Positions 17,522 to 39,170 are shown, counted from the stretch's first letter. The stretch is DNA of 64,000 nt from Deltaproteobacteria bacterium (GCA_016218825.1 JACRCV010000006.1:6797-70796), one strand, 5' to 3'. Notes: generated from the sequence alone by a model not told the origin. Program-made: numbers and translations.

Positions 17522-17691
17522 AGTGGCGCAGCGGCGCGCGACTACGTTATGTAGGCGTCGAGCCTCTGGCTGTGCCAGGGCGAGGTGCGGGGGCGCGGGG
17601 GGACGCAGAGTTCCGGCGCTCCGGCCCCGGACGAGGCGCGGCGTTTCAGCCGGCGGGCGGTCCCCCCGATAGAATGGAGCAGCGCCCGGTG

Positions 17692-21138: not shown

Positions 21139-21226
21139 GCGCGCGGCATCTGGCCAGGAGCCCCTAGACCCGACCCCGACCCGACGCTAGATTCGCCCCG
21201 CCTCTGACTGTTGCGAGGTGAGAGTA

Positions 21227-21769: not shown

Positions 21770-21776
21770 GACGACC

Positions 21777-23159
21777 ATGCCGGGCGACACCATCACCAAG
21801 ACGATGAGCACCTGGGCCGCGGGCCTGAGCTTCAAGCACCTCACCCCCGAGGCGGTGCACGAGGCCAAGCGCTACCTGCTCGACTCGATCGGCTGTGCGC
21901 TCGGCGGTTTCATGCAGCACGACGTCAAGATCGCGCTGAAAGTGCTCGGGCCGATGGCGGGCAAGGGCAAGGCCACGGTGATCGGCACCGGCAAGAAGAT
22001 CGATCCGGTCTCGGCGTCGCTGTTGAACGCGTTGATGGTCCGGGTGATGGACTACAACGACATCTACTGGCGCCAAGACCCGTCGCACCCGTCCGACATC
22101 ATCCCCGCGGCCCTCGCCACCGGCGAGCTCGGCGGCAAGAACGGCAAAGACCTGGTGGTCGGCGTCGTCCTGGGGCACGAGCTCGAGATGCGGCTGTGCG
22201 AGTGCGCCTTCCCCGGGGTGCGAGAGCGCGGCTGGCACCACGCGACCTTGACCGCCTTCGCCTCGCCGATCGTCGCCGGGCGGATGCTGGCCTTGAGCGC
22301 CGAGAAGATCCAACACGCGATCGGCATCTCCGGCTCGCGGCACGCCACCCTCGGCGCGGTCACCGCCGGCAAGCTGACGATGATGAAGAACACCGTCGAC
22401 CCGATGGCGACCCAGTCGGGCGTGTTGGCGGCGCTCTTGGCGAAGGAGGGCTACACCGGCCCCGAGCACGTCATCGACGGCAAGGAGGGCCTGGCCCACT
22501 GCCTGAAGCCGGAGTGGAAGCTGAACATCCTCACCGACGGCTTGGGCCAGAGTTTCCGCATCACCCAGTGCGGCATGAAGGCGTTTCCGACCGAGGCGCT
22601 GACGCACGCGCCGATCAGCTGCACCCTCGACATCATCAAGGGGCACGACCTGGCGCCGGACGAGGTGGCGAAGGTCAAGATCCGCTCGCTGGCGCGCGCC
22701 GCCGACATCCTCGCCGATCCGTCGAAGTACGACCCGCGCTCCAAGGAGACCGCGGACCATTCGCTGCCGTACGTGATCGCCGCGGCGATCGCCGACCGCC
22801 AGGTGACGCCACTGCAGTTCACCCAGAAGAAGATCATGAGCCAGGCGATCCGCTCGCAGCTCGACAAGGTCGAGGTCAAGGCCGATCCCGAGATCGAGGC
22901 GCTGTTCCCGAAGCTGCAGCGGGTCCACGTCACCGTGGTCACCACCGACGGTCGCGAGCTCGTCAAGCAGATCGACTTTCCGAAGGGTGACCCCAGAAAC
23001 CCGCTCACCGACGCCGAGGTCGAGGAGAAGCTCGAGGCGCTCGCGGCGCCGGTCGTCGGCAAGCCCGCCCTGGCGAAGATCAAGGACGCGGTGTGGGGCC
23101 TCGAGCGTCTGAAGTCGATCTCGGACTTGATGCAGCTCTTGCGCGCCCGGGCACGGTGA
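21777..23159 (+). CDS. prpD: MmgE/PrpD-family dehydratase (2-methylcitrate dehydratase-like)
   Basis: LLDSIGCALGG, DYNDIY..SHPSD, KAFPTEALTH, ETADHSLPY, FPKGDPRNPL. Confidence 0.9.
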   Translation: MPGDTITKTMSTWAAGLSFKHLTPEAVHEAKRYLLDSIGCALGGFMQHDVKIALKVLGPMAGKGKATVIGTGKKIDPVSASLLNALMVRVMDYNDIYWRQDPSHPSDIIPAALATGELGGKNGKDLVVGVVLGHELEMRLCECAFPGVRERGWHHATLTAFASPIVAGRMLALSAEKIQHAIGISGSRHATLGAVTAGKLTMMKNTVDPMATQSGVLAALLAKEGYTGPEHVIDGKEGLAHCLKPEWKLNILTDGLGQSFRITQCGMKAFPTEALTHAPISCTLDIIKGHDLAPDEVAKVKIRSLARAADILADPSKYDPRSKETADHSLPYVIAAAIADRQVTPLQFTQKKIMSQAIRSQLDKVEVKADPEIEALFPKLQRVHVTVVTTDGRELVKQIDFPKGDPRNPLTDAEVEEKLEALAAPVVGKPALAKIKDAVWGLERLKSISDLMQLLRARAR

Positions 23160-23167
23160 GGTCAAAG

Positions 23168-25123: not shown

Positions 25124-25158
25124 GGCCTCGACCCACAGCGATTGAGGAGAGTCGGACA

Positions 25159-26346
25159 ATGGCACGTCACACCGTGGTCGCGATGCCGGGCGACGGCATC
25201 GGCAAGGTGGTGTTGCCCGAGGCGATTCGGGTGCTCGAGGCGGTGGGCTTCGACGCCGAGTACGTGCACGGCGACATCGGCTGGGACTTCTGGGTCAGCG
25301 AGGGCAACGCGCTGCCGGAGCGCACCGTGGCGCTCCTCGCCAAGCACAAGCTCGGGCTGTTCGGCGCCATCACCTCCAAGCCCAACAAGGACGCCGAGGC
25401 CGAGCTCAGCCCGGCACTGAAGGGCAAGGGCTTCAAGTACTTCAGCCCGATCGTCGGCATGCGGCAGAAGTTCAACCTCGACATCTGCGTGCGGCCCTGC
25501 AAGTCGTATCCCGGCAACCCGTTGAACTTCGTCCGCAAGCGGCCGGACGGCGCGGTCGAGGAGCCGGCGGTGAACGCGGTGATCTTCCGCCAGAACACCG
25601 AAGGGCTCTACGCCGGCGTCGAGTGGACCAACCCCTCGACCCAGGTGCGTGACGCCATCGCCACCCATCCGAAGTTCAAGGCGTTCGACAAGGTGCCGTC
25701 GGACGAGATGGCGCTGTCGGTGCGCATCATCACCCGCCAGGGTGCGACCCGCATCTGCACCGCGGCCTTCGAGTACGCCAAGCGGCACGGCTTCAAGAAC
25801 GTCACGATCTGCGAGAAGCCGAACGTGCTGCGCGAGACCTCGGGGCTGATGGAGGAGGTGGCGAAGGAGGTCGCGAAGAAGTACCCGGCGGTCGCGTTGT
25901 GGTCGGTCAACATCGACGCCATGACGATGTGGCTCACCAAGAACCCCGAGGAGTACGGCGTCATCGTCGCCTCCAACCTGTTCGGCGACGTGATCTCCGA
26001 CGCGTTCGCGGGGCTGGTCGGCGGGCTCGGGTTCGCCTGCTCCGGCAACATCGGCGACGAGGTCGCGGTGTTCGAGCCGACCCACGGCTCGGCGCCGAAG
26101 TACGCCGAGCTGAAGCCGTCGATCGTCAACCCGATCGCGACCATTCTGTCGGCGGCGATGCTCGCCGAGCACGTCGGTGACGTCGAGCGCGCCAAGAAGA
26201 TCGAGGCCGCGGTCGCCGCGGTGGTGAGAGAGGGCAAGGTGCGCACCTACGACATGGCCCGGCTGCCGGGCGGTCCGGACGCCTTGAAGCGCGGGGCGCA
26301 CAACACTCGAGAGCTCGGCGACGCGATCATCGCCAAGCTCAAGTAG
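25159..26346 (+). CDS. Isocitrate/isopropylmalate dehydrogenase family, homoisocitrate-dehydrogenase-like
   Basis: PGDGIG, YFSPIVGMR, FRQNTEGLY, EKPNV, NLFGDVISD, EPTHGSAP. Confidence 0.9.
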   Translation: MARHTVVAMPGDGIGKVVLPEAIRVLEAVGFDAEYVHGDIGWDFWVSEGNALPERTVALLAKHKLGLFGAITSKPNKDAEAELSPALKGKGFKYFSPIVGMRQKFNLDICVRPCKSYPGNPLNFVRKRPDGAVEEPAVNAVIFRQNTEGLYAGVEWTNPSTQVRDAIATHPKFKAFDKVPSDEMALSVRIITRQGATRICTAAFEYAKRHGFKNVTICEKPNVLRETSGLMEEVAKEVAKKYPAVALWSVNIDAMTMWLTKNPEEYGVIVASNLFGDVISDAFAGLVGGLGFACSGNIGDEVAVFEPTHGSAPKYAELKPSIVNPIATILSAAMLAEHVGDVERAKKIEAAVAAVVREGKVRTYDMARLPGGPDALKRGAHNTRELGDAIIAKLK

Positions 26347-26382
26347 CGTCGCGGCCGCTGGGGCTCGGCGCGGGAGCGTGTC

Positions 26383-27591
26383 ATGGTGCTCGAGAACAGG
26401 ACCGGGGTCGGGAGTGCGGGTCGGAGCGGCCCCGAGGTGCGCTCCGACCTCCGGGTGCAGGTCGCGACCCGGAGCGCCGGCGGGCTCGAGCTCAGCCTCA
26501 AGTCCAAGGTCGAGCCCTACTACGGCGACGCGATCCGCGAGCAGGTGCGATCGCTGTGCAAGGGGCTGGGGCTGCTGCACGCCAAGGTCGAGGTCGACGA
26601 CGCCGGCGCGGTGCCGTTCGTGATCGCGGCGCGCCTCGAGGCGGCGGTGCGGGCGGCCGGGGCGGGCGCTGGCCACGACGTGCGACCGCCGCGCTTGGAT
26701 CCGTTGCCGCCGCCGAGCTCGAAGACCCGGGTGCGCCGTTCGCGCCTCTACTTGCCGGGCAACGAGGCCAAGTTCATGCTGAGCGCCGGGCTGCACGGTC
26801 CGGACGGTGTCATCCTCGATCTCGAAGATTCGGTGCACCCGGCGGCCAAGGACGAAGCACGGCTGGTGGTCCGCAACGCGCTGCGGCAGGTGGACTTCGG
26901 CGCCTGCGAGCGGATGGTGCGCATCAACCAGCTGCCGCTCGGGCTCGAGGATCTGGCGGCGGTGGTGCCCGAGAGCCCGGATCTCATCTTGATCCCCAAG
27001 GTCGAGACCGCGGCGCAGGTCGAGGCGGTCGATCGGGCGGTGGCCGGCCTCTTGGGGAGCGACGCGCGGCCGCTGTGGCTGATGCCGATCATCGAGTCGG
27101 CGCTCGGGGTCGAGAACGCCTTCGCGATCGCCCGGGCGGCGTCGCGGGTCGCGGCCCTGACCATCGGCCTCGAGGACTACACCGCCGACCTGGGCGTGGT
27201 GAAGACCGCGACGGGCGACGAGACGTTGTGGGCGCGTGCCCGGCTGGTGAACGCCGCGCACGCCGCCGGGGTGCAGGCCATCGACTCGGTGTTCGGCGAC
27301 TTCGGCGACGAGGCGGGGTTGCGGGCCTGGGCCCTGAAGTCGCGGGCGATGGGCTTCGAGGGGATGGGCTGCATCCATCCGCGCCAGATCCCGATCATCC
27401 ACGAGTGCTTCGCGCCGTCGGCGGCGGAGATCGAGCGCGCCAAGAAGATCGTCGCCGCCTTCAAGGAGGCCGAGGCCAAGGGCGTCGGGGTCGTGAACCT
27501 CGGCTCGAAGATGATCGATCCGCCGGTGGTCGAGCGCGCCCGCCGCCTGGTCGCGGCGGCCGAGGCGATGGGGCTGTTGGCCAAAGGGTGA
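26383..27591 (+). CDS. citE: Citrate lyase acyl-carrier (CitD-like) fused to beta subunit (CitE)
   Basis: N-terminal ~95 aa CitD-like (SKVEPYYGDAIR..VDDAGAVPFVIAARLEAAV); CitE motifs RRSRLYLPG, LDLEDSV, VRIN, IPKVE, IIES, GLEDY, IHPRQI. Confidence 0.9.
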   Translation: MVLENRTGVGSAGRSGPEVRSDLRVQVATRSAGGLELSLKSKVEPYYGDAIREQVRSLCKGLGLLHAKVEVDDAGAVPFVIAARLEAAVRAAGAGAGHDVRPPRLDPLPPPSSKTRVRRSRLYLPGNEAKFMLSAGLHGPDGVILDLEDSVHPAAKDEARLVVRNALRQVDFGACERMVRINQLPLGLEDLAAVVPESPDLILIPKVETAAQVEAVDRAVAGLLGSDARPLWLMPIIESALGVENAFAIARAASRVAALTIGLEDYTADLGVVKTATGDETLWARARLVNAAHAAGVQAIDSVFGDFGDEAGLRAWALKSRAMGFEGMGCIHPRQIPIIHECFAPSAAEIERAKKIVAAFKEAEAKGVGVVNLGSKMIDPPVVERARRLVAAAEAMGLLAKG

Positions 27592-27604
27592 CGGGAGCTG
27601 GTCG

Positions 27605-29206
27605 ATGAGCGACAAGGTTGAGCTGTCGGAGAACGCGCTCGGGCGCCTGGTGCCGAGCGTGGTGAACGGCCGGCGCGAGGTCGCGTTCCAGGGCGTCAAC
27701 GCCCATCGGCCGCAAGGCAGGAAGCACGCGCCTTCGATTCGCAGCTCCGCCGACTATCCCGCGAACGGCGACAAGCGGGTGGCCGACCTCGAGACCGCGC
27801 TGAAGAAGTGCGGCGTCAAGAGCGGCATGGTGATCTCCAACCACCACCATTTCCGCAATGGCGACATCGTGGCGCTACAGGCGCTGCAGACCGCGGCCCG
27901 GCTCGGCGCCAAGGACCTGGTGTGGTTTCCGAGCGCCTCGTTTCCCTGCCAGGCGGCGGTGATCGAGCTGATGCAGCAGGGGGTCGTGCACCACATCGAG
28001 GGCAGCATGAACGGGCCGCTCGGCGATTACTGCACCGCCGGCAAGATGCGGGGTCTCGGGGTGCTGCGCTCGCACGGCGGTCGGTGGCAGGCGGTGCAGG
28101 ACGGCGAGGTGGAGATCGACATCGCGGTGATCGCGGCGCCCACCGCAGACCCCTTCGGGAACGCCGACGGCAGCCACGGTAGGTCGGCGTGCGGCTCGCT
28201 CGGCTTCGCGCTCGCCGACGCCACCTACGCCGAGCGCGCCATCGTCGTCACCGACAACCTGGTGCCCTTCCCCTGCATCCCCTGGCAGATCCAGGGCAAC
28301 CACATCGATCACGTGGTGGTGACCGACTCGATCGGTGACCCGGCGAAGATCGTCTCCGGCACCACCGAGATCACCAAGAGCCCGGATCGCTTGCGGATCG
28401 CCGAGTACGTGGCGCGCTTCCTCGCCGACGCCGGCATTATGAAGGACGGCTTCTCGTTCCAGGCCGGGGCCGGCGGCATCGCGCTGGCGTTCGTCAGCTA
28501 CCTCAAGGAGCTGATGCGTGGCGCCGGGGTCAAGGCGCGCTTCGTGCGCGGCGGCTCGACGAAGTACCTGGTGGAGCTGTTGAACGAGGGGCTCGTCGAC
28601 TACATCCTCGACGGTCAGACCTTCGATCTGCACGGCGTGGCGAGCATCGCCTCGAACCCGCGGCACGTGGCGACCTCGCCGTTCACCTCCTACAACCACC
28701 AGGGCAAGGGCAACTTCGCCACCTTCGTCGACGCCGCGGTGCTCGGGGCGACCGAGGTGGACGTTCACTTCAACGCCAACGTCGTCACCCACTCCGACGG
28801 CCGTCTGTTGCACGGCATCGGCGGCTGGCAGAACTGTCTGTTCTCCGGCTGTTCGATCTTGGCGGTGCCGTCGGTGCGCGACCGGATCCCGGTGATCGTC
28901 GACCGGGTGACGACGCTGGTCGGCCCCGGCGAGCTCGTCGACGTGGTCGCGACCGAGCGCGGCATCGCCATCAATCCGCGGCGCACCGACCTCTTGCAGG
29001 CGGTCCGCGGCACGTCGCTGCCGATCCGGCCGATCGAGGAGATCAAGGCCGAGGTCGAGAAGATCTGCGGCGGCAAGCCCAAGCCCCCGGCGCTCGGCGA
29101 CACGCCGGTGGCGGTGGTGAAGTGGGTCGACGGTACGATCATCGACACCGTGTGGCAGGTGCTGGGCCCGTTCGCGGCGGCGGGCGGCGGCGGCGGTGGC
29201 GACTAG
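27605..29206 (+). CDS. citF: Citrate lyase alpha subunit / citrate CoA-transferase
   Basis: HHHFRNGD, LRSHGGR, FSFQAGAGG, LGATEVD..FNANV, GIGG, VDVVATERGIAINPRR. Confidence 0.92.
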   Translation: MSDKVELSENALGRLVPSVVNGRREVAFQGVNAHRPQGRKHAPSIRSSADYPANGDKRVADLETALKKCGVKSGMVISNHHHFRNGDIVALQALQTAARLGAKDLVWFPSASFPCQAAVIELMQQGVVHHIEGSMNGPLGDYCTAGKMRGLGVLRSHGGRWQAVQDGEVEIDIAVIAAPTADPFGNADGSHGRSACGSLGFALADATYAERAIVVTDNLVPFPCIPWQIQGNHIDHVVVTDSIGDPAKIVSGTTEITKSPDRLRIAEYVARFLADAGIMKDGFSFQAGAGGIALAFVSYLKELMRGAGVKARFVRGGSTKYLVELLNEGLVDYILDGQTFDLHGVASIASNPRHVATSPFTSYNHQGKGNFATFVDAAVLGATEVDVHFNANVVTHSDGRLLHGIGGWQNCLFSGCSILAVPSVRDRIPVIVDRVTTLVGPGELVDVVATERGIAINPRRTDLLQAVRGTSLPIRPIEEIKAEVEKICGGKPKPPALGDTPVAVVKWVDGTIIDTVWQVLGPFAAAGGGGGGD

Positions 29207-29269: not shown

Positions 29270-31612
29270 GTGACCAGCACTCTTCCCAACGGCATAGAGC
29301 TCGGTCGCTACCGCATCGTCAAGCTGCTCGGGCGTGGCGCGTCGGGGAACGTGTACCTGGCGCGCGACAACCTGCTCGACGTCGACGTCGCGTTGAAGGC
29401 CTTCCTGCCGGCGGTGATCGAGTCCGAGGAGGCCTGGGAGCGGGTGCGGCGCGAGCTGTTGCTCGCCCGGCGCCTGGCGCACCGCGGCATCTGCCGCTTG
29501 TTCGATCTGCACGCCGAAGGCGGCACGCGCTTCATCACCATGGAGTACATCGAGGGTCAGAGCCTCGAGGAGATCCTGGAGCGCGAGGCGCCGCTCGCCC
29601 CGGGGCGCGCGGTGGCCATCGCCTGCGCGCTGCTCGACGCGCTCGCCGTCGCGCATGACGCCGGCATCACCCACCGCGATCTGAAGCCGATGAACGTCAT
29701 CATCGACAGCTCCGGGCGGGTGGTGATCCTCGACTTCGGGTTCGCGAAGGGCAAGGGCGGCCGCGAGGTGACGCAGGCGGGCTCCTACGTCGGCACCCCG
29801 GCCTACATGGCGCCGGAGCTCTTCGGCGGCGTCGCGGCCTCGGCCGAGACCGATCTGTGGGCGGTCGCGGTCATTCTGTTTCGCGCCTTGACCCGGGTGG
29901 CGCCGTTCGCGGGTGACAACCTGCTCGAGGTCGGGCGGGCGGTCGTCAACGATCTGCCGGAGTCGCCGGCGCGCATCACCGGCACCGTCCCGGAGACGCT
30001 GTCGGCGGTGGTGATGCGGGCGCTCGACAAGACCCCCGGTCGTCGTTACCCGTCGGCGCGCGTCTTTGCCGCCGCCCTGGCGTCGTTCGCCGACGCCAAG
30101 GTCCTGCCGTCGCAGCCCGGGCTGGCGCCGGAGTGGGGGCCGCCGACCGCCGCCTATGATTCTCCACCCGGCGAGACCAGCGCCTCGATCACCGCCGCCT
30201 CGGGCATAGCGCCACTGGAGATCGGCGGCATCACCGCGCTGACGCCGCTCATCACCGACGGCCCGATGCCGCGGCTGGAGCGCACCGCGGTGACCGGCGA
30301 CGCTTCGTTCTCGCAGGTGATCCGCGGCAACATCGTGCCGACCACCATCCTGTTCTCCGACATCGTCGGCTTCACCAGCTACTTCGACCACTTCGGTGAC
30401 GTCCGCGGCCGCAAGCTGCTCGAGACCCACAACAAGCTGCTGCTGCCGATCATCGATGCCAACCACGGCAAGGTGGTGAAGACCATCGGCGACGCGATCA
30501 TGGCGATGTTCCCTTCCGCGGACGACGGGGTCAGCGCCGGGATCGCGATGCAGCGCAGCCTGGTGCTGCACAACGGCGGCGCCCCCCGCGAGGACCGGAT
30601 CACGATCCGCATCGGCCTGCACTCGGGCGACGCCATCGTCGAGAAGCAGGACGTCTTCGGCAACACCGTGAACGTCGCGGCGCGGATCGCGGCGCGCTCG
30701 GAGGGCGGCCAGATCCTGATCTCGGCCCAGACCCACGCGGCGCTCACCCTGCAGTCGGGCATGGTCACCTTCCACACCGCCGCCGAGCTCAAGGGCAAGG
30801 AGGAGGTCTACGACCTTTACCGGGTGCAGTGGCACGAGGGGACCGAGCCGGTGCCGCGGCTCACCGAGTCCGCCGAGCTCCCCGAGGAGCCGCCGGAGGG
30901 CACCGACCCCGAGGTGTTGCCGGACAAGCCGGAGGCGACCAGCCGCACCCGGCCCGACATCCTGGCGCCGCCGCGCACCACCAAGTGGGTGGCCGCGGGA
31001 GCGACGCTGCTCTTGGTCGCGGTCGCCGTGCTGCTGTTGGCGCTGTGGTCGCCCCCTTGGCTGTCCCGGATCCTCCCGGCGGCGGTGCCGCTGCCCGCGG
31101 AGGAGGCCGCGGCCGGCACGATCACCGAGCTGCAAGTGGCGCCACCGCCGTCGGTCGCCACCGAGACCACGATCCAGTCTCCGGTCAAGCCGCTCACCCC
31201 GGTCCAGAGTGAAGACAAGGCCACGGGCCGCAAGCGCGCGCTGCTGCAGGCCCAGGCGCAGAGGGTCGATCAGGCACTGCAGGCGAAGGGCATCATCGAG
31301 GGGGACCTCGCGGAGCTCGATCTCGCCTGTCGCCGGGCGGACCGGTTGGCGCGCCAAGGGCGCTACGAGGACGCGGTGACCTCGTTCAAGCACGCGGAGC
31401 AGGTGGCCCTCGCCGCGGTGATCGACAAGGGGTTCGTCAGCGCCAAGCTGATGCGCTTCAACCGCCAGTTCGACCGGGTCCGCAACAAGGCTCTGAAGAA
31501 GAAGCTCGAGCCGGTGGGGCAGACGGTGCTGAACGCGATCGCGGCCGGCGATGAAGAGGCCGCCAACCGCCACTTGAACCGGGGGTTCAGCATGCTGAAG
31601 GGGCCCCCTTAG
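29270..31612 (+). CDS. Ser/Thr kinase - class III adenylate cyclase - TM - extracytoplasmic helical domain
   Basis: GRGASG, VALK, HRDLKPMN, DFG, GTPAYMAPE; cyclase FSDIVGFT, KTIGDA, IGLHSG, DVFGNTVNVAAR; TM WVAAGATLLLVAVAVLLLAL. Confidence 0.92.
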   Translation: MTSTLPNGIELGRYRIVKLLGRGASGNVYLARDNLLDVDVALKAFLPAVIESEEAWERVRRELLLARRLAHRGICRLFDLHAEGGTRFITMEYIEGQSLEEILEREAPLAPGRAVAIACALLDALAVAHDAGITHRDLKPMNVIIDSSGRVVILDFGFAKGKGGREVTQAGSYVGTPAYMAPELFGGVAASAETDLWAVAVILFRALTRVAPFAGDNLLEVGRAVVNDLPESPARITGTVPETLSAVVMRALDKTPGRRYPSARVFAAALASFADAKVLPSQPGLAPEWGPPTAAYDSPPGETSASITAASGIAPLEIGGITALTPLITDGPMPRLERTAVTGDASFSQVIRGNIVPTTILFSDIVGFTSYFDHFGDVRGRKLLETHNKLLLPIIDANHGKVVKTIGDAIMAMFPSADDGVSAGIAMQRSLVLHNGGAPREDRITIRIGLHSGDAIVEKQDVFGNTVNVAARIAARSEGGQILISAQTHAALTLQSGMVTFHTAAELKGKEEVYDLYRVQWHEGTEPVPRLTESAELPEEPPEGTDPEVLPDKPEATSRTRPDILAPPRTTKWVAAGATLLLVAVAVLLLALWSPPWLSRILPAAVPLPAEEAAAGTITELQVAPPPSVATETTIQSPVKPLTPVQSEDKATGRKRALLQAQAQRVDQALQAKGIIEGDLAELDLACRRADRLARQGRYEDAVTSFKHAEQVALAAVIDKGFVSAKLMRFNRQFDRVRNKALKKKLEPVGQTVLNAIAAGDEEAANRHLNRGFSMLKGPP

Positions 31613-31670
31613 CAATCCGACCAGCGTGCCATGTTACTGATTCTGACCTCGGGGGCGAGCAGGTGAACGG

Positions 31671-31946
31671 ATGTCTGAGATCAAGATTGAACGGTCGCAC
31701 AAGCTCGGCAGCGACGAAGCCAAGAAGCGCTTTGCCGGCATCGAGGCCAAGCTCAAGGAGCGTTACGGCGTCGCGCTCGAGTGGCAGGGCCACAACGCCA
31801 CGGTGAAGGGCTCGGGCGTCACCGGTGACGTCAAGGTGACGAGCGACCGCATCGCGGTGGTCCTGAGGCTCGGCTTCCTGGTGCGGCCGTTCGCGGCGAA
31901 GATCAGAGAGGCCATCGAGCGCCAGGTGGACGAGAAGCTGGTGTAG
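31671..31946 (+). CDS. Polyhydroxyalkanoic acid system family protein (PHA_gran_rgn)
   Basis: IERSHKLG.DEAK..WQG..VKGSGVTG..LGFLVRPF..KI pattern, 91 aa. Confidence 0.85.
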   Translation: MSEIKIERSHKLGSDEAKKRFAGIEAKLKERYGVALEWQGHNATVKGSGVTGDVKVTSDRIAVVLRLGFLVRPFAAKIREAIERQVDEKLV

Positions 31947-31984
31947 CGCCTCCGGGCGTCGTGCTAGGGTCGGCGGCGAGGGCG

Positions 31985-32497
31985 ATGAAGAAGACCAGGC
32001 CACCCGAAGCGGCGAGTGTCTCCGACGCGGTGTCGCGGCGCGACTTCCTGGCCGACAGCGGTCGGCTGGTCACCGCGGCGTGCCTCGCCGGGGTGACGGC
32101 CGGCGCGGTGCGCTTGAGCCTCCCGGACGTCGAGAGCGGCCGGCGGCCGCGGGCGCGGCTCGGCGCGCCTGCCGACTTCAAGATGGGGACGGTGACCTGG
32201 CTGCAAGAGCACGAGCTCTTCGTCTGCCACAAGGCGCACGGCTTCGCGGCCTTCTCCTCGCGCTGTCCGCATCTCGGCTGCACGGTGCGGCGCACCACCA
32301 CCGGCTTTCGCTGCCCGTGTCACGGCGCGCGCTTCGACCCCGAGGGCCGGGTGGTCTCCGGGCCGGCGCGCCGGGCCCTCGACTGGTTCGCGGTCGAGAC
32401 CGGCCCCGACGGCCAGCTGTGGGTCGACCGGAGCCGCGCCACCGAGCCCGGCAGCTTCACCCCCTTGCGGGTCGCGGCCGCGGAGTCGGCCGGATGA
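31985..32497 (+). CDS. Rieske 2Fe-2S subunit of a Rieske/cytochrome b complex
   Basis: Tat motif SRRDFL; boxes CPHLGC and CPCHGARF; GPA..AL. Confidence 0.93.
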   Translation: MKKTRPPEAASVSDAVSRRDFLADSGRLVTAACLAGVTAGAVRLSLPDVESGRRPRARLGAPADFKMGTVTWLQEHELFVCHKAHGFAAFSSRCPHLGCTVRRTTTGFRCPCHGARFDPEGRVVSGPARRALDWFAVETGPDGQLWVDRSRATEPGSFTPLRVAAAESAG

Positions 32498-33858
32498 GCT
32501 TCGTGGCCGACGTCGTCCGCGCGGCGCGGGCGCTGCCCCAGAACCTGCGTCACGACCTGCACCCCGGGGTGTCGGCCGACGACAGTCCGGGCTCGCGCCT
32601 GCGGCGCAGCTTCCTCTACCACCTGTTCCCGCTGCGGGTGACCGAGCGCGCCCTCGCGCCGGCCACCACCTTCGGGCTCGGGCTCGTCAGCGTCGCGCTC
32701 TTCATTCTCCTCACGGTCACCGGCCTGTTGTTGATGTTCTACTACGTGCCGACGCCGCGCGACGCTTACGGCAGCATGCTCGACATCGACAACGTCGTGA
32801 CCTTTGGCCGCCTCTGCCGCCGCCTGCATCGCTTCGGCGCCGACCTGATGGTGGCCGTCGTCTTGTTGCACCTCGTCCGAGTGGTGGCCCAGGCCGCGTA
32901 CCGGCGTCGCGAGCTCAACTGGCTCATCGGCCTCGGGCTCGCGTCGCTGCTCGTCGGCCTGGCGTTCACCGGGTATCTGTTGCCCTGGGACCAGCGGTCG
33001 TACTGGGCGGTGCGCGTGGTCACCGAGCTGTTGGGCTTGTTGCCGGTCGTCGGCCGGGCGATGCAGCTCGTCTTGGTGGGCGGCGCCGAGGTCGGCGCGG
33101 CGACCTTGTCGCGTTTCTACGCCTTGCACGTGGCCCTGTTGCCGCTCGGGATGCTCGGGTGTTTGGTGTGGCATCTGTGGCGGATCCGCAAGGACGGCGG
33201 GCTGGCGGCGGTCGAGGTCGATCCGCCGACGGTCGCGGCCTGGCCGCACCTGGTGCTCCGGGTGTCGCTGGTGCTGCTCGGCACGACCGCGCTCGTGCTG
33301 TTCGTCGCCCTGGTACAAGACGCGCCGCTCGCGCCGCTCGCCAACCCGCTGCGGCCCGAGAACCCCGAGAAGGCGCCGTGGTACTTCCTCGCGGTGCAGG
33401 AGATGGTGAGCTACTCGGCGTTGACCGGCGGCGTCGTCATTCCGGTGTTGACCGCGCTGGGGTTCTTGGCGCTGCCGTTTCTCGACCGCGCCGACCTTGA
33501 CGTCGGATACTGGCTCGGAGCGCGCGGCGAACGGCGCACGGTGCTGGTCGCGGTCGTGGCGAGCGGTGTCGTGCTCGGCCTTGGCACCGTCGCCTACCTC
33601 ACGCCCGAGCTCGGCGCGGTCCTCGAGGCGCTGCCGCCCTGGGCACACGACGTCTTGAACCCGGCGGGCCTGATGTTGTGCTGGACGGCGCTCGTCGTCG
33701 TCGGCACCGGCCTGCGCACCGACGCGGTGCGGCCGGCGTTGCGTGCCGGGATCGGGGCGCTCTTCGTCGGCCTGTGTGTGTTCACCCTCCTCGGGATGCT
33801 GCGCGGGCCGGACTGGGGTCTGGCCTCGCCGTGGGAGGCGTTCCGCCGTGTCTTTTGA
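32494..33858 (+). CDS. Cytochrome b with fused subunit IV
   Basis: Heme His in RRLHRFG..LLHL and ALHV..WHL; GYLLPWDQ; APWYF (PEWY equivalent); ATGA overlap with the Rieske gene. Confidence 0.93.
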   Translation: MSFVADVVRAARALPQNLRHDLHPGVSADDSPGSRLRRSFLYHLFPLRVTERALAPATTFGLGLVSVALFILLTVTGLLLMFYYVPTPRDAYGSMLDIDNVVTFGRLCRRLHRFGADLMVAVVLLHLVRVVAQAAYRRRELNWLIGLGLASLLVGLAFTGYLLPWDQRSYWAVRVVTELLGLLPVVGRAMQLVLVGGAEVGAATLSRFYALHVALLPLGMLGCLVWHLWRIRKDGGLAAVEVDPPTVAAWPHLVLRVSLVLLGTTALVLFVALVQDAPLAPLANPLRPENPEKAPWYFLAVQEMVSYSALTGGVVIPVLTALGFLALPFLDRADLDVGYWLGARGERRTVLVAVVASGVVLGLGTVAYLTPELGAVLEALPPWAHDVLNPAGLMLCWTALVVVGTGLRTDAVRPALRAGIGALFVGLCVFTLLGMLRGPDWGLASPWEAFRRVF

Positions 33859-34861
33859 CCCGAGGCACGACTCCCGCCGGCTCTTCGAGCTGCTGCTGCT
33901 CGTGGCGTCGGTGCTCTTCGCCGGCCTCGCGATCGCGGCGGCGCAGGGGCTGTCCCGGCCCTGGAAGGCGTTTCAGGCGCAATTCGTGGCGCTCGGCCTC
34001 GGCAAGTCCGAGGTCCCGCCTGGCATCGTCGAGGTGTCGACCTGCGACGGCGACGTCGATCGCTGCACCACCTGTCACTTGGGGGCGGCGCGTCTGGACC
34101 TGAACGTCGCGGCGATCGGCCACCCGTTCCGCTCGCACCGCCCAGCGCTCGGGTCGCACACCCCGGAGCGCATGGGCTGCACCGCTTGCCACGGGGGCGT
34201 CGGCCGCGCCCTCGATGTCGACCGCGCCCACGCGCTCGCCGGCACCGCCGGCGTCGACCCGCTGCTGAAGACGCCCTTCGTGCTCGCCAGCTGCGGCCGC
34301 TGTCACGTGCCGGGGGACCGGCCGGGGACCGAGACCCTGGTGCAGGGGGCGCTGTTGTACCTGCAGCTCGGCTGCGCGATCTGTCACAGCTTGACCGCGG
34401 GCGGCATCGGCGCCTGGGACGACGGCCCGGAGCTGCGCGCCCTCGGCCGGCGCTCGAAGGTGGAGCTCGAGACCAGCCTCTTCGAGCCGGCGGCGGATTT
34501 CCCCGAGTCGACGATGCCGTCCTACGAGCCGACCTTCGAAGGCCATCCCGAGGAGCTGACGGTGCTCTCGACCTACGTTCAGGCGCTCACCCTCACGCGC
34601 CTGCCGGCGTGCGCCACGGCGGCGGCGCGCGACCTCGGCGCTCTGAGCGTGGCGTGCTCCCGGTGTCATCTGGACGGCGGCCCGGCCGCGGGCGTGCCGC
34701 ATCGCTGCAGCTACATCCTCGAGCGCAAGGCCGAGCTGCGGTGTCGCGGCTGCCACGGCGCCGCCACGGGGAAGAACGCGGCGCAAGACTGTCCGGTCGT
34801 CGCGGCGCATCGGCCGGCGTGCGTTGCCTGTCATTGGGGATCCGAGACCCTGCGGCGCTGA
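33848..34861 (+). CDS. Membrane-anchored 7-heme cytochrome c
   Basis: N-terminal TM; CTTCH, CTACH, CGRCH, CAICH, CSRCH, CRGCH, CVACH; overlaps the cytochrome b stop. Confidence 0.9.
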   Translation: MSFDPRHDSRRLFELLLLVASVLFAGLAIAAAQGLSRPWKAFQAQFVALGLGKSEVPPGIVEVSTCDGDVDRCTTCHLGAARLDLNVAAIGHPFRSHRPALGSHTPERMGCTACHGGVGRALDVDRAHALAGTAGVDPLLKTPFVLASCGRCHVPGDRPGTETLVQGALLYLQLGCAICHSLTAGGIGAWDDGPELRALGRRSKVELETSLFEPAADFPESTMPSYEPTFEGHPEELTVLSTYVQALTLTRLPACATAAARDLGALSVACSRCHLDGGPAAGVPHRCSYILERKAELRCRGCHGAATGKNAAQDCPVVAAHRPACVACHWGSETLRR

Positions 34862-34882
34862 GGGCGAGAGGAGCGTTACGGT

Positions 34883-35443
34883 ATGGACATCAACCGGCGG
34901 GAGCTGATCTCGGGGCTGGTGGCGCTCGGCGTCGCCGGGAGCGCCTGCCGCGGCCGGGCCGACGCCGACCCGCGGGCGCGCGCCTGGTACGGTCGGCTGC
35001 CGGCCGATCGGCAACGGGCGCTGGCGGCGGCGGTCGACCGCGTCCTGCCCGGCGCGGTGGCCGCCGGGGCGATGGTGTACCTCGACTATTGGTTGACGCG
35101 GCCGCCGTTCATCTTTGCCCAGCGCGAGTTCGACACCGCGGCCCTCCTGCTCAACCGCGCCGCCGAGCAGCGCTTCAAGAAGAGCTTCGCCGACGCCAGC
35201 GGCGTGGAGGCGGACGTGGTGCTCGGGTTGTTCGAGAAGGGGGAGATCAAGGGCAAGCACTTCGACGGCCGCGAGTTCTTCAAGCGCCTCGTGACCCTCA
35301 CCATCGAGAGCTACCTCGCCGATCCCAAGTACGGCGGCAACCAGGGGCAGGTGGGCTGGGAGCTCGCCCGTTGGCACCATTGCTGGTACTCGCCGCGCCA
35401 CGTCGACCAGCTCGCGCCCCGCGTCGGCGCGCTCCCTTACTGA
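34883..35443 (+). CDS. Gluconate 2-dehydrogenase subunit 3 family protein (Tat)
   Basis: NRRELISG Tat motif; DRVLPGA..GAMVYLD, F.KSFAD, FF..L..LTIESYLADPKYGGN..GW. Confidence 0.88.
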   Translation: MDINRRELISGLVALGVAGSACRGRADADPRARAWYGRLPADRQRALAAAVDRVLPGAVAAGAMVYLDYWLTRPPFIFAQREFDTAALLLNRAAEQRFKKSFADASGVEADVVLGLFEKGEIKGKHFDGREFFKRLVTLTIESYLADPKYGGNQGQVGWELARWHHCWYSPRHVDQLAPRVGALPY

Positions 35444-35451
35444 GGTGAACG

Positions 35452-37119
35452 ATGGCGGCGCGTGAGCAGGTGGACGTGGTGGTGGTGGGGAGCGGCGCCG
35501 GCGGCGCGCCGATCGCCGCGACCTTGGCCGAGGCCGGGGCGAGCGTCGTGGTGCTCGAGAAGGGGCCGTACTACACCATCCGCGACTTCACCCACGACGA
35601 GGTCGGCATCTGCCGCCGGAACTTCTTCGTCCCGTTTCCCGACGACGATCCGCACGTCCTCGTCAAGGACGGCGCCGCGCCGGTTCGCACCGCCGAGGGC
35701 TTCACCTCGCAGTGCGTCGGCGGCGCGACCGTGCACATGAGCGGCTTCACCTACCGTCTCAAAGAGCAGGATCTGCGCCTGCGGACCCTGCTCGGGGGCA
35801 TGAGCGGCGCCGAGCTCGCCGACTGGCCGCTGTCGATCGCCGAGCTGACACCCTTCTACGACCTCGCCGAGGCGGCGTTGGGGGTCTCGGGTCAAGCCGG
35901 CATCAATCCCTTCGATCCGCCGCGCCGGCCGTATCCGCTGCCGGCCTTGCGTCCCCACCCGGCCGCGGCGCTCATCGACGCCGCCGCCAAGCGCCTCGGG
36001 CACCATCCGTTTCCCACGCCGCGGGCGATCGTGTCGCGATCGTACGGGACGCGGCCGCCGTGCAACTACTGCGGGTTGTGCGGCGAGTACGGCTGCGAGA
36101 ACGGCTCGAAGTCGAGCGTGCTCGCGACCTTCATTCCCCGCGCCGAGGCGACGGGTCGCTGTCAGATCCGCGACCACGCCATGGCGCAGCGGATCCTCAC
36201 CGACGCCGACGGTCGGGCGACCGGCGTCGAGTACCTCGATTCCCACGGCGAGCTGCAGCTGGTGCAGGCGCGGGTGGTGGTGGTGGCGGCGAGCGCGATC
36301 GAGAGCGCGCGGCTGTTGTTGCTGTCGCACAGCAGCCTGTTTCCGAACGGTCTCGCGAACAGCTCCGGGCTGGTCGGCAAGAACTTGACCTTCTCCAACT
36401 TCGGCAAGGCGACCGCGGTGTTCGATCGGGGTGCCATCGCCGCCGCGGTGGGCGAGGCGGACCTGGGCCTGCCGTTCTTGCAGCGCAGCGTGCAGGACGA
36501 CTATTGGATCCCGAAGGCGGGGCTGGCGCTGCCGAAGGGTGGCACCTACAACTTCCTGCTCCATCACCCGAACCCGATCAACGCCGGGGTGCGCCTGGCG
36601 CTCGACTCCGACTGGGCGCTGTGGGGAGCCGATCTCAAGGAGGCGATGCGGCGCTACTTCCAGGACGAGGTCTGGATCGAGTTCGAGATCTTCGGCGAGT
36701 TTCTCGCTACCGCCGGCACCTTCGTCGAGCTGGATCCGGAGGCGACCGACCGCTTCGGCCTGCCGGCGGCGCGCATCAACGTCAAGCACCACCCGGAAGA
36801 CGTGAAGACCAACACCTACATGACGAAGCGGGGCATCGAGATCCTACAGTCGGTGACGCCGCAGGCGAAGTCGGTGAAGCCGTGGACCTGGGGCGGCACC
36901 ACGATGCACCTGCAACACGGCACTTGTCGTTTCGGCACCGACCCGTCGCGCTCGGTGTTGAACCCGTTCTGCGAGGCGCACGACGTCAAAGGCCTCTTCG
37001 TCACCGACGCCAGCTTCATGCCGACCTCCGGCGGCGTGCCGGCCACCCCGACCATCATCGCCAACAGCCTGCGGGTCGCGCACCACGTCCGGGAGCGGTT
37101 CGGGCGGCGGGAGCTCTGA
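35452..37119 (+). CDS. GMC-family FAD oxidoreductase (sugar-dehydrogenase flavoprotein type) with Fe-S motif
   Basis: VVGSGAGG, CVGGATVH, CNYCGLCGEYGC, HGTCRFG, LFVTDASFMPTSGGVPATPTI. Confidence 0.92.
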   Translation: MAAREQVDVVVVGSGAGGAPIAATLAEAGASVVVLEKGPYYTIRDFTHDEVGICRRNFFVPFPDDDPHVLVKDGAAPVRTAEGFTSQCVGGATVHMSGFTYRLKEQDLRLRTLLGGMSGAELADWPLSIAELTPFYDLAEAALGVSGQAGINPFDPPRRPYPLPALRPHPAAALIDAAAKRLGHHPFPTPRAIVSRSYGTRPPCNYCGLCGEYGCENGSKSSVLATFIPRAEATGRCQIRDHAMAQRILTDADGRATGVEYLDSHGELQLVQARVVVVAASAIESARLLLLSHSSLFPNGLANSSGLVGKNLTFSNFGKATAVFDRGAIAAAVGEADLGLPFLQRSVQDDYWIPKAGLALPKGGTYNFLLHHPNPINAGVRLALDSDWALWGADLKEAMRRYFQDEVWIEFEIFGEFLATAGTFVELDPEATDRFGLPAARINVKHHPEDVKTNTYMTKRGIEILQSVTPQAKSVKPWTWGGTTMHLQHGTCRFGTDPSRSVLNPFCEAHDVKGLFVTDASFMPTSGGVPATPTIIANSLRVAHHVRERFGRREL

Positions 37120-37167
37120 GCCGTCGACCGCGACGACGCCTTCGCGCTGTAGTGATCTTCGCCGCCG

Positions 37168-38652
37168 CTATTCTCCGAGCGTCGCGAGCATCGCCGCCAC
37201 CGCCGCCGGCATCTCGTGCTGCGCCGCCATCTCGCGCATGTGATCCTTGAGGTAGCTGTGCTCGATCAGGAGCTTCAACACGTCGACGAGGTAGGCGCGC
37301 TTGGCGGCCGGCAGCGACTCGAGGCGCGCGAACTTGTCGTGAAAGAACGAGCCGGTGGCGCGCAGCAGCGCGCGCCGCACCTCGTCGATCGTCATCGATC
37401 GCGGTTTGACCACGGGCTCGATGAGGTTGTAGCGCGAGTAGTCGCGGCTGGTGACGTGCGCCTCGAGCTGCGGGTAGAGATCGGCGTAAGGCCAGGGCGT
37501 CAGCGCCAGGAAGAAGGCCATGTCGGGCGCGTACCACTTCGCGAGCTCGACGGTGCGGGCGATCGACGCCGGTGTTTCGTCGAGCGTGCCGAGCACGAAT
37601 GAGGTCTCGCTGACGATGCCGTGGTCATTGATCATCGCGATCGCCCGCTTGGCGTCGGCGACGCGGGTCTCCTTCTTGTACAGGTCGAGGGTCGCCTGGC
37701 TCGTGGACTCGACGCCGACGTAGATGTGCGAGATGCCGGCGGCGCGGTACTGCCCCAGGAGCGCCGCGTCGCGCAGGATGTCGTCGATGCGCGTCTCCAT
37801 CAACAGCTCGACGCCGACCCGGCGGTCGATGAGCAGCCTCAAGATCTCCTGCCAGCGGGTCGGATCGACCGTCGGCGTTTCGTCGGCGAGCATGGCCACC
37901 TGGACGTCGAAGCGGTCGCGCAAGCGCTCGAGCTCTTCGACCACGGCGAGCGGCCGCCGGCCGCGCCAAGAGCGCGCCCAGAACTTCTGCTGGGAACAGA
38001 ACGAGCACTGCTTCTGGCAGCCGCGGGAGGTGCTGATGATGGCGAGCCGACCGGCAGGGTGGGGGCGATAGAAGTAGCGCGGCCAGTCCACCGCGTCCCA
38101 GGCCGGCGTGAGGCGATCGAGATCGGCGCACAAGGGCCGGGGCGGGTTCTGCACCGCGATGCCGTCGCGGCGCCAGGCGACGCCGCGCACCGGTCCCAGA
38201 TCGGTCGTGTGCGCTGCGCCGGGTGTCGCGGCGACGGCCGCGACGACCTCCGCCAGGGTCTGCTCGCCCTCCCCGCACACGATCGCCTCGACGGCCGGGT
38301 CCGCGCCGAGGATCTCGCGCCACATGAACGTCGGGTGCTGATTGCCGAGCAGGGTCAGGATGCGTGGATCGACGGCCTTGGCGCTACGGCAAACCCGGCG
38401 AGCGTCGGGCTCCATCGCGGTGATCGCGGTGACGCCGACGACGTCGGGGCGGAAGCGCTCGATCTCCTTGGCGATCGCATCGTGGTCATGGCGAAGCGAC
38501 ATCGCGTCGTAGAGGTAGACCTCGGCGCCCGCCTGGCGAGCTGCACCCGCCAGGTAGACCAGGTGCAGCGGCAGCCACACCCCGGCGGCCTCGACCACGC
38601 CCGTGTGGTACGGGGGGGTGATCAGCATCACGCGGCGGCGAGCGCTCGTCAT
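37168..38652 (-). CDS. Cobalamin-binding radical SAM protein (class B methyltransferase-like)
   Basis: N-terminal B12-binding Rossmann (PLHLVYLAG, PDVVGVT, GNQHPT); STSRGCQKQCSFC (CxxxCxxC); LADE, GVES; no signal peptide. Confidence 0.93.
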   Translation of the reverse strand: MTSARRRVMLITPPYHTGVVEAAGVWLPLHLVYLAGAARQAGAEVYLYDAMSLRHDHDAIAKEIERFRPDVVGVTAITAMEPDARRVCRSAKAVDPRILTLLGNQHPTFMWREILGADPAVEAIVCGEGEQTLAEVVAAVAATPGAAHTTDLGPVRGVAWRRDGIAVQNPPRPLCADLDRLTPAWDAVDWPRYFYRPHPAGRLAIISTSRGCQKQCSFCSQQKFWARSWRGRRPLAVVEELERLRDRFDVQVAMLADETPTVDPTRWQEILRLLIDRRVGVELLMETRIDDILRDAALLGQYRAAGISHIYVGVESTSQATLDLYKKETRVADAKRAIAMINDHGIVSETSFVLGTLDETPASIARTVELAKWYAPDMAFFLALTPWPYADLYPQLEAHVTSRDYSRYNLIEPVVKPRSMTIDEVRRALLRATGSFFHDKFARLESLPAAKRAYLVDVLKLLIEHSYLKDHMREMAAQHEMPAAVAAMLATLGE

Positions 38653-39170
38653 CGGCGGGCGCCTCCGGACGCGGCGGGGCCGGGCAGGGGCGCGGCGGGA
38701 GCGTCACTCGGGGGCGCGACGGTGGTGGTGGCGATCGTCCGGGCGCGGGCGACCCGATACGCGCCGGCGGCGCGCGCGACCTCGAGCTCCATCACCATGT
38801 CGGCGACCACCAGCGGCCCCGGCTCGCTCCCCGGAGCGGCGCCCCGATCTCGATACCGCCAGCGCTCCTCGGTCCTTACGATGACCAACTCGGGAGCCCG
38901 CTCCTCGACGCCGACGACCCGAAAGGCGAGGAGCTCGGCCTCCAGGACCACGCCGGCCGCGCGCTTGAGATCGATGAGGGCGCGGACCCGTTGGACCTCG
39001 TCCGGGCGCGCGACGCCGGCGAGGTCGGAGCTGTCGCCGGTGCCGTAGGCATCCGCGAGGGCGTCGGCGTAGGCGCGCACCGCGCGGGCCGCCGGGTGAT
39101 CGGCCTGCGCCGGCCGGCAGCCGGCGAGCGCGTCGGCGAGCAGGAAGAGCGCCGTCGGGGCCCGGCTCAC
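38649..39170 (-). CDS. Small putative lipoprotein (173 aa), possibly NTF2-like
   Basis: GTG 39170 overlaps the ccsA stop and its TGA overlaps the radical SAM ATG; lipobox LAGC; helices followed by beta strands (RTEERWRYRD). It is the tail of track ORF 38649-39827. Confidence 0.72.
   Translation of the reverse strand: MSRAPTALFLLADALAGCRPAQADHPAARAVRAYADALADAYGTGDSSDLAGVARPDEVQRVRALIDLKRAAGVVLEAELLAFRVVGVEERAPELVIVRTEERWRYRDRGAAPGSEPGPLVVADMVMELEVARAAGAYRVARARTIATTTVAPPSDAPAAPLPGPAASGGARR

Follow-up and report, generated by a model that had tools for sequence, protein, structure and literature searches.

Rieske/cytochrome b (bc) complexes tend to be regarded as quinol oxidases whose task is fixed. 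Until now only the pairing with p-cresol methylhydroxylase (PCMH) in Geobacter and the complexes of anammox bacteria hint that this core can be combined with catalytic modules. For the PCMH-bc pairing it was proposed (Peters 2007; Johannes 2008; both as cited in a passage of PMC4122944) that substrate electrons enter bc from the c side and that menaquinone is reduced by a reversed Q cycle. The layout Fe-S/FAD oxidoreductase - Rieske - cytochrome b - multihaem c is known from anammox bacteria (PMC12954380, PMC5600118). Gluconate- and fructose-type dehydrogenases, which carry flavin adenine dinucleotide (FAD), have a tri-haem subunit that receives electrons from a 3Fe-4S cluster at the surface (PMC6719666, PMC5979317); in the glucose dehydrogenase of Burkholderia cepacia (BcGDH) electrons pass from FAD over this cluster to the multihaem subunit (PMC6719666). 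Here we describe a five-gene operon on a stretch of 64,000 nucleotides (nt) from Deltaproteobacteria bacterium (GCA_016218825.1, JACRCV010000006.1:6797-70796; the whole stretch is called the window below), which has approx. 70% G+C and belongs to a contig from a groundwater metagenome. The operon, one of uncultured Myxococcota, encodes a Rieske protein, a cytochrome b, a seven-haem cytochrome c (the heptahaem), a small "hitch-hiker" subunit and a flavoprotein of the GMC fold. A first-pass annotation of this DNA had taken a tri-haem subunit to be the normal partner of such flavoproteins, a premise that the literature cited above bears out. We propose that the five proteins very probably form one electron-transfer unit, in which the GMC/small-subunit pair would exchange electrons with the heptahaem and, through the heptahaem, with Rieske/cytochrome b.

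The genes of the operon are co-oriented, with overlaps or short gaps, as had been described in the first-pass annotation. The Rieske and cytochrome b genes overlap by 4 nt (ATGA) and the cytochrome b and heptahaem genes by 11 nt, the small-subunit gene follows after 21 nt and the GMC gene after a further gap of 8 nt. The 21-nt gap contains GAGAGGAG, which resembles a ribosome-binding site. Upstream, the neighbour of the Rieske gene encodes a polyhydroxyalkanoate (PHA)-granule protein on the + strand, and downstream a gene for a B12-binding radical SAM protein is convergent to the GMC gene; the five genes are thus bounded as a unit. A promoter and terminator scan of positions 31400-37400 returned no promoter-like site, and its five weak terminator-like sites (2.0 +/- 1.7 expected) all lay within coding sequence and were uninformative.

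The same gene order recurred in 34 further loci. Some loci were redundant between collections (e.g. L012/L041 and L029/L030), and 28 non-redundant complete sets, including that of the window, were obtained, which come from groundwater, sediment and saline samples. The proteins of these sets had mean pairwise identities of 66% (GMC), 55% (Rieske protein and cytochrome b, each), 48% (heptahaem) and 46% (small subunit). Whether GMC and this type of bc occur together elsewhere had been named beforehand as a point on which the proposal could fail; it was surveyed from the heptahaem, the GMC and the cytochrome b side, and the link held.

From the heptahaem side, a word-indexed search gave 36 clusters of relatives and an exhaustive profile search among 1.84 billion representatives yielded 295 with E <= 1e-30. 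Of the 150 best, about one in three was a full-length heptahaem (~300-345 amino acids, aa), and the rest were mostly longer cytochromes that matched the N-terminal two thirds only. When one genome per GTDB species was scanned with the heptahaem profile, 20 loci were found, all in metagenome-assembled genomes (MAGs) labelled Myxococcota, Deltaproteobacteria or similar. The complete order Rieske - cytochrome b - heptahaem - small subunit - GMC was present in 14 of the 20, and three more were cut by a contig end and consistent with it.

From the GMC side, about 100 clusters were at least 57% identical to the window protein, and a metagenome scan with the GMC alignment gave 80 loci. Where the GMC protein was at least 60% identical and at least 3.4 kb of upstream sequence was present, the full set was found in all 19 metagenome loci, and three truncated loci were consistent with it. 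Most of the 58 loci with a GMC protein of 57% identity or lower were without any bc. Below about 55% nearly all were small-subunit/GMC pairs without bc, a few with a cytochrome gene nearby, and in context look-ups GMC genes at 51-55% stood alone or, together with the small-subunit gene, had other partners. A full five-gene set was found at 57% identity (L022), a divergent full module even at 50% (L106), and cytochrome b - heptahaem - small subunit - GMC at 67% on an 863-kb contig (L021). Seen from the heptahaem and the GMC side together, the bc-GMC association defines a clade, and chance does not account for it. In three small-subunit/GMC loci (L047, L084 and L103) apparent read-through open reading frames were set aside, being stop-free upstream stretches in a different frame.

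About 90 clusters matched the cytochrome b over its full length at 42-60% identity. The next relatives, at 37-45%, are encoded in operons of the order Fe-S/FAD oxidoreductase - Rieske - cytochrome b - multihaem c; three such anammox-like operons on non-anammox metagenome contigs are listed in Table 1. A tblastn search of the window with the Fe-S/FAD NAD(P)-type oxidoreductase of one of them (L109) gave no match.

The junctions were also conserved. Across the loci the Rieske and cytochrome b genes overlapped by 4 nt and the cytochrome b and heptahaem genes, nearly everywhere, by 11 nt, and a 4-nt overlap between the heptahaem and small-subunit genes was found in 13 distinct loci (14 with the duplicate L023). 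Start codons in the other loci were picked by proximity to the window alignment, and single gap values may err by a few codons; the recurrent values of -4 and -11 nt are unlikely to be artefacts. The 4-nt start/stop overlaps lie exactly where the bc block meets the GMC block. They point to translational coupling of this boundary in most species and make a separate transcription of the GMC genes unlikely. A fusion of heptahaem and small subunit in L011 was rejected as probably a frameshift of a nanopore-assembled MAG, and a close relative (L014) has the normal 4-nt overlap.

The heptahaem has a single N-terminal transmembrane (TM) helix at residues 12-30, and all seven CxxCH motifs together with Met223 were invariant in 16 heptahaem sequences. 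In profile searches residues ~165-250 matched CcoO and the bc1 cytochrome c of Aquifex, which places haem 4 in a class-I His/Met domain. Residues 8-278, comprising the anchor and haems 1-4 with the CcoO-like domain, showed homology to c subunits from sister bc complexes, whose first four haems stand at 73/110/148/176, or are offset from this by a constant, as compared with 73/111/149/176 in the window. Residues 139-330 with haems 3-7 were 33% identical over 194 aa (E 3e-27), with matching haem spacing, to a 7-haem cytochrome with signal peptide in L103. That locus has no bc, and there the 7-haem cytochrome gene directly precedes a sister GMC pair (51% identity). With its front like bc c subunits and its back half like a cytochrome found beside GMC without bc, the heptahaem is thus a hybrid that combines both, and this anatomy supports its role as a wire.

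An 8-kb JGI contig (P0300) carries one open reading frame of 688 aa in which a cytochrome b with the motif APWF is fused to a heptahaem with seven CxxCH. Either the fusion is real or a frame error of 1 nt has occurred where the two genes usually overlap by 11 nt. Upstream of the reading frame there is a Rieske gene, and no small-subunit or GMC genes lie nearby. Thus the heptahaem-bc core can stand alone, and the C-terminal tri-haem part is not strictly GMC-specific. The idea of a GMC-specific C-terminal tri-haem part was weakened accordingly, by this contig and by L013, both of which have seven haems and no GMC.

The small subunit carries a twin-arginine motif, NRRELI, which the clade keeps in the form [S/T/N]RRx. 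AGSAC in the same protein was considered as a lipobox and rejected, as its Cys is not conserved. In the GMC flavoprotein the Rossmann motif GSGAGG starts already at residue 13; hence there is no signal peptide. Both findings agree with the first-pass annotation, which had called the flavoprotein Tat-exported (Tat, twin-arginine translocation) with no signal of its own, and so does the CxxCxxC motif reported there. This lies in the Cys loop C204-x2-C207-x2-C210-x4-C215 (CNYCGLCGEYGC), which is conserved including its fourth Cys, C207. C204, C210 and C215 align with the 3Fe-4S ligands C212, C218 and C222 of BcGDH (PMC6719666), and the loop is predicted to bind an Fe-S cluster. The best sequence matches in the PDB were the BcGDH alpha subunit 6a2u (7.5e-39) and the large subunit 7w2j of fructose dehydrogenase (FDH; 6e-33). 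The AlphaFold2 (AF2) model of the GMC protein (pLDDT 81.5, pTM 0.87) gave TM scores of 0.77-0.81 to FDH and BcGDH in Foldseek (8k6k/7w2j/6a2u, E 5e-42 to 1e-37), the next fold class being pyranose oxidases at 4e-27. The counterpart of the catalytic His476 of BcGDH is H487, in a weakly scoring region of the alignment (20 bits), and the bc-linked clade keeps this residue. No tri-haem cytochrome subunit was found in or beside the operon; the sole adjacent cytochrome has seven haems and belongs to the bc block.

The Rieske protein has a Tat signal/anchor with the motif SRRDFL (TIGR01409, E 0.0025) and boxes of the bc type with both disulfide Cys present, and its best NCBIfam matches were b6f/bc1 Rieske models. 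Boxes and RR motif were kept in 20 of 20 relatives. The Ala/Phe signature first reported for box II (CPCHGARF) held in part: the residue after CPCHG is Ala in all 20 relatives, versus the Ser of high-potential proteins, and the next-but-one residue is Phe in only about half of them, Tyr in the other half. Ser and Tyr raise the potential of the cluster via hydrogen bonds (PMC12954380), and with Ala in place of Ser a lowered potential of the window cluster is plausible. The statement that loss of Ser/Tyr marks low-potential menaquinol Rieske proteins should be read as a tendency only.

In cytochrome b the haem ligands are H112/H126 (13 apart) and H212/H227 (14 apart, as in b6), and all four His were invariant. 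The Qo motif is APWY; [A/T/S]PW[Y/F] was conserved across 20 sequences with Pro and Trp invariant, as were PWDQ and the b6-like IRKDGG at the Qi side. The first 107 residues contain no Cys and thus no ligand for haem ci of the b6/Firmicute kind, so that both features ascribed to this protein in the first-pass annotation were recovered. About 9-10 hydrophobic segments were counted. Residues 38-237 matched NCBIfam ExtP with 234 bits (cutoff 290) and residues 250-368 ExtQ with 46 bits (cutoff 150). Judged by its Qo motif, and tree placement aside, the protein would belong to the published APWY clade, and in all features that a sequence can reveal the core looks like a genuine Rieske/cytochrome b complex.

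Our view of the five proteins as one unit rests on three observations: the Fe-S loop for electron export is kept without a tri-haem partner, the GMC and small-subunit genes are in translational coupling with that of the heptahaem, and relatives of the heptahaem occur beside GMC pairs that lack bc. The wiring of the flavoenzyme to a bc-type complex through the heptahaem, as first suggested, is supported by the conserved synteny, the junction overlaps and the hybrid heptahaem. From this we infer a physical complex, an electron path, a direction and a type of substrate. The GMC subunit with FAD and Fe-S cluster would fold in the cytoplasm and cross the membrane on the Tat signal of its small partner, like the catalytic subunits of the FDH and FAD-glucose dehydrogenase complexes. 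The pair would dock on the membrane-anchored heptahaem, which would also be the c subunit of a dedicated b6-like Rieske/cytochrome b module of the APWY clade, and the flavoprotein would oxidise a substrate of the CH-OH type in the periplasm. Electrons would pass from FAD to the Fe-S cluster, along the haem wire to Rieske/cytochrome b and into the menaquinone pool, and the heptahaem together with Rieske/cytochrome b would replace the classical tri-haem subunit as quinone-coupling membrane module, in line with what was proposed for the PCMH-bc cluster of Geobacter metallireducens. A redox-loop route through the b haems is an alternative path. To the complete statement, one respiratory unit including the direction from donor to quinone, we give an even chance, and to the direction taken for itself a chance that is even at best. 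In favour of this direction, the GMC/FDH/GDH family consists of dehydrogenases, sister GMC pairs lie beside c-type cytochromes, and the operon read this way is a closed path. Kao and Hunte described the APWY clade as uncharacterised and spanning delta-proteobacteria, Planctomycetes, Nitrospirales and others, and linked it to electrons that enter from the c side, with the Geobacter metallireducens PCMH-bc cluster as the example cited (PMC4122944).

Several observations weigh against this picture. Regarding the link itself, heptahaem-bc cores occur without GMC in three of the 20 heptahaem loci (L013, L015 and L020) and in P0300, a small-subunit/GMC pair without bc was found at 63% GMC identity (L047), and tblastn for a Rieske gene in L021 was negative. 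In mirror-tree comparisons of the 28 sets the heptahaem correlated with Rieske and cytochrome b (r 0.89-0.90) and the small subunit with GMC (r 0.88), and across the two blocks r was 0.70-0.77 and Spearman 0.30-0.47. The operon would thus consist of two sub-blocks, for the most part passed on jointly and perhaps with exceptions. The AF2 model of the heptahaem was poor (pLDDT 65.6), and Foldseek found a class-I cytochrome c domain alone, nothing at E <= 0.001 and no structural relative of the whole protein. Regarding the chemistry, the catalytic Asn519 of BcGDH aligns, again in the weak region of 20 bits, with the invariant Pro530 of the GMC protein, and for this reason its chemistry may differ from that of a classical GMC dehydrogenase. 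Regarding the direction, the features of an ordinary Q cycle are all conserved (Rieske protein, Qo motif, four His, b6-like IRKDGG at the Qi side), which by family logic argues for quinol oxidation and not quinone reduction. A reversed Q cycle with a low-potential alcohol or sugar donor would moreover dissipate redox energy and proton-motive force.

These forward features would be accommodated if Rieske/cytochrome b passes electrons from menaquinol to the heptahaem, the GMC protein reduces the heptahaem as well, and both streams leave to an acceptor whose genes lie elsewhere; this might be a soluble cytochrome c together with a terminal oxidase, or a periplasmic or extracellular multihaem network. 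Every part would then keep the usual job of its family, with an intact bc core and an FDH/GDH-like GMC protein. Haem 4 in its CcoO/class-I-like domain is typical of oxidase partners, cores without GMC (L013, L020, P0300) suggest that the core can take other partners, and the window itself encodes cytochromes with 63 and 33 haems and CcsBA nearby. We nevertheless regard such a shared use of the heptahaem as unlikely: the tight translational coupling of this bc type to one flavoprotein clade is left unexplained by it, no acceptor gene was conserved beside the module in 43 loci, nor are the window's large cytochromes conserved next to it in other loci.

The first-pass annotation had left the choice between donor and terminal reductase, and the evidence leans to the donor, without settling it. 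For a reductase, menaquinol would be oxidised by Rieske/cytochrome b and electrons would run over heptahaem, Fe-S cluster and FAD to an acceptor of high potential in the periplasm, which might be O2 or some oxidised organic compound, the operon being a closed chain from quinol to acceptor like an anammox bc complex with HAO-like subunit. The path would be closed inside one operon with an intact, forward-competent bc module, catalytic modules on the P-side haem chain of related Rieske/cytochrome b complexes have a precedent (PMC12954380), sister bc complexes (L108-L110) are of the anammox-like type, and the active site with Pro for the catalytic Asn is atypical. Set against this, the only known GMC enzymes with such an Fe-S loop are dehydrogenases whose electrons go to cytochromes (PMC6719666), and the APWY clade has been linked to c-side input (PMC4122944). 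In potential, carbonyl/alcohol couples would also be much lower than a haem chain fed by Rieske, and unusually oxidising acceptors would be needed. A terminal reductase therefore seems improbable to us, more so than a heptahaem fed from both sides. Two independent systems that merely travel together, a bc complex with its own heptahaem and a soluble periplasmic GMC dehydrogenase with another acceptor and no electron passage between them, would fit the weaker correlation across the two sub-blocks, the loci that have one block without the other (L013, L015, L020, P0300, L047) and the wider small-subunit/GMC family, most of which has no cytochrome gene nearby, yet we consider them very unlikely in view of a gene order that 28 non-redundant sets keep at identities of 46-66%, the overlap of 4 nt that falls precisely on the boundary between the blocks in 13 distinct loci, the sharp break of the association below about 57% GMC identity, an electron-export Fe-S loop kept with no other cytochrome partner encoded, and a heptahaem C-terminal half in common with the GMC-adjacent cytochrome of the bc-less L103.

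Table 1. Features of the window (positions counted from its first nt) and of loci compared with it.
Feature	Position	Strand	Length	Remarks
Rieske [2Fe-2S] subunit	31985-32497	+	170 aa	PF00355 (E 6e-12)
Rieske Tat signal/anchor motif	32033-32050			SRRDFL
Rieske box I	32264-32281			CPHLGC
Rieske box II	32312-32335			CPCHGARF
Cytochrome b, fused b6 + subunit-IV-like	32494-33858	+	454 aa	PF00033 (E 4e-41), PF13631 (E 3e-35)
Cytochrome b Qo motif	33373-33384			APWY, residues 294-297
Membrane-anchored heptahaem cytochrome c	33848-34861	+	337 aa	GTG start; 7 CxxCH
Heptahaem CxxCH, nt starts	34064, 34178, 34292, 34373, 34655, 34742, 34820			residues 73, 111, 149, 176, 270, 299, 325
Small "hitch-hiker" subunit	34883-35443	+	186 aa	PF13618 Gluconate_2-dh3 (E 8e-16)
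Small-subunit twin-arginine motif	34892-34909			NRRELI
FAD-binding GMC-fold catalytic subunit	35452-37119	+	555 aa	PF00732 and PF05199
GMC Cys loop	36061-36096			C204 to C215
B12-binding radical SAM protein	37168-38652	-		48-nt gap to GMC gene
Citrate-related co-oriented run	15881-29206	+
Protein with RCC1-like repeats and bacterial Ig-like domain	17524-21138	+	1204 aa
Ser/Thr protein kinase fused to adenylate/guanylate cyclase domain	29270-31612	+		C-terminal TM/coiled part
CcsA-/ResB-like system II cytochrome c biogenesis genes	39167-40036, 39993-41249	-, -
Giant multihaem cytochrome	41455-50790	+	3111 aa	63 CxxCH; internally repetitive
Giant multihaem cytochrome	52212-54860	-	882 aa	33 CxxCH; Cytochrome_C7/c3 and MtrC-like matches
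Cytochrome b - heptahaem - small subunit - GMC	L021:5131-9653
Heptahaem-small subunit fusion	L011:10001-11593			rejected
Anammox-like operons	L108:4383-9652, L109:4552-9827, L110:4580-10257			c with 5, 6 or 8 haems
TSP_3 protein	L003:13530-14876, L013:11028-12425, L015:11617-12948			10 more loci
Partner of sister GMC pairs	L026:4970-7282, L027:9704-12019, L103:2644-5001, L084:2996-5572		~750-790 aa
Partner of sister GMC pairs	L024:5069-7306	-	~750-790 aa

Flank clustering of 43 loci gave as conserved neighbours only a TSP_3 protein and ExbB. The former, with thrombospondin type-3 repeats and a MYXO-CTERM-like tail, follows GMC in 13 of the 43 module loci, often with ExbB/ExbD-like genes behind it. 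It stays in L013 and L015, where GMC is missing (in L013 the small subunit also), and follows a lone GMC gene of 55% identity in L025. The B12-binding radical SAM gene of the window is no conserved neighbour of the module elsewhere, and a pyrophosphatase gene lies on the other strand 400 nt upstream of the module in L021. Sister GMC pairs at 50-53% identity are accompanied by a protein of ~750-790 aa with an N-terminal anchor, a YncE/S-layer-like beta-propeller and two C-terminal CxxCH. It looks like an undescribed partner family. Its C-terminal 2xCxxCH region matched the cytochrome c peroxidase 3o5c_A at E 0.11, which is not significant, and a role as electron sink would be a guess.

Directly upstream of the PHA-granule gene and the module, the window encodes a protein kinase/cyclase fusion. 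It is preceded by a citrate-related run with genes for citrate synthase, an HD-domain protein, PrpD/MmgE, aconitase, isocitrate/isopropylmalate dehydrogenase, a citrate lyase beta/ACP fusion and CitF; the RCC1-like repeat protein lies within the same coordinates. On the other side, cytochrome c biogenesis genes lie between the module and two giant multihaem cytochromes. The latter were considered as dedicated partners and rejected, since they are not conserved beside the module in other loci.

The operon is solidly real and conserved, and it is mechanistically suggestive for the APWY clade; it is known from uncultured bacteria only, and its putative function is read from its genes. It adds a well-defined and widely conserved second pairing of a dehydrogenase with bc, and as the flavoprotein comes from the structurally understood FDH/FAD-GDH family, the electron entry point is predictable. 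The operon thereby offers a test case for whether a bc-type complex runs in reverse or as a redox loop, how a multihaem adaptor is shared between modules, and which component takes the place of the tri-haem subunit in bacteria that have menaquinone only. For enzyme technology it provides a new natural partner for flavoenzymes capable of direct electron transfer. More tentatively, the Rieske/cytochrome b module might be the quinone-coupling membrane anchor of a periplasmic dehydrogenase and the heptahaem an exchangeable adaptor that plugs different enzymes into one core, which we consider possible and somewhat doubtful. If true, the idea of bc complexes as dehydrogenase anchors would have a living case in this operon, and the APWY clade would gain a general function.

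Among the three-subunit FAD dehydrogenases, the relevant systems are the FAD-dependent glucose dehydrogenase (FAD-GDH) of Burkholderia cepacia (6a2u/8grj), the FDH of Gluconobacter japonicus (7w2j) and the gluconate 2-dehydrogenase type. Like FAD-GDH and FDH, the window has a signal-less GMC-fold subunit, a Cys loop that aligns with the 3Fe-4S ligands and a twin-arginine small subunit of PF13618, and electrons are expected to leave via a multihaem c-type cytochrome (PMC6719666). Identity to their catalytic subunits is about 25%. Compared with BcGDH the GMC protein has an extra Cys, C207 (CxxCxxCxxxxC), lacks the Cys of the inter-subunit disulfide (Asn205) and has Pro for the catalytic Asn. FAD-GDH and FDH dock on a tri-haem, quinone-reducing cytochrome, whereas the window has no tri-haem subunit and instead an N-anchored 7-haem c subunit of bc. 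By its sequence features the flavoprotein pair would thus qualify as an FAD-dependent dehydrogenase complex, except for the defining tri-haem subunit.

The anammox bacterium Kuenenia (Kuste4569-4574 and Kustd1480-1485; PMC12954380) combines, as the window does, a b6-like Rieske/cytochrome b core with a multihaem c and an accessory flavoprotein. Outside the GMC-linked group, the closest relatives of the window cytochrome b (37-45%) show the anammox layout, and haems 1-4 are common to their c subunits and the heptahaem. In the anammox type the flavoprotein is a cytoplasmic one of the Fe-S/NAD(P) type encoded upstream of Rieske, whereas the window has a periplasmic GMC-type protein and no such gene. 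The Kuenenia Rieske proteins have been measured to be high-potential and keep the Ser (one also the Tyr), in contrast to the Ala of the window. ExtP and ExtQ of the Geobacter ext clusters (NF040969/NF040970), the best NCBIfam matches of the two parts of cytochrome b, both below the curated cutoffs, are two proteins in another operon context, whereas the window has one fused protein of 454 aa. In the full-text literature covered, which leaves out most subscription journals, no description of a GMC-Rieske/cytochrome b operon was found, and this is absence of evidence only.

The PCMH flavocytochrome is of the VAO type and not a GMC protein. Its cluster in Geobacter metallireducens resembles the window in that genes for a periplasmic flavoprotein dehydrogenase and for an APWY-type Rieske/cytochrome b stand together, as stated in the passage of PMC4122944 on that cluster. 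As far as that passage describes it, the cluster differs from the window in having the PCMH flavocytochrome and no hitch-hiker subunit, Fe-S loop or heptahaem, the two bc modules being compared by description only. The design of a dehydrogenase joined to an APWY-type bc complex, as found in the window, has one published precedent, itself only proposed, in the PCMH system of Geobacter.

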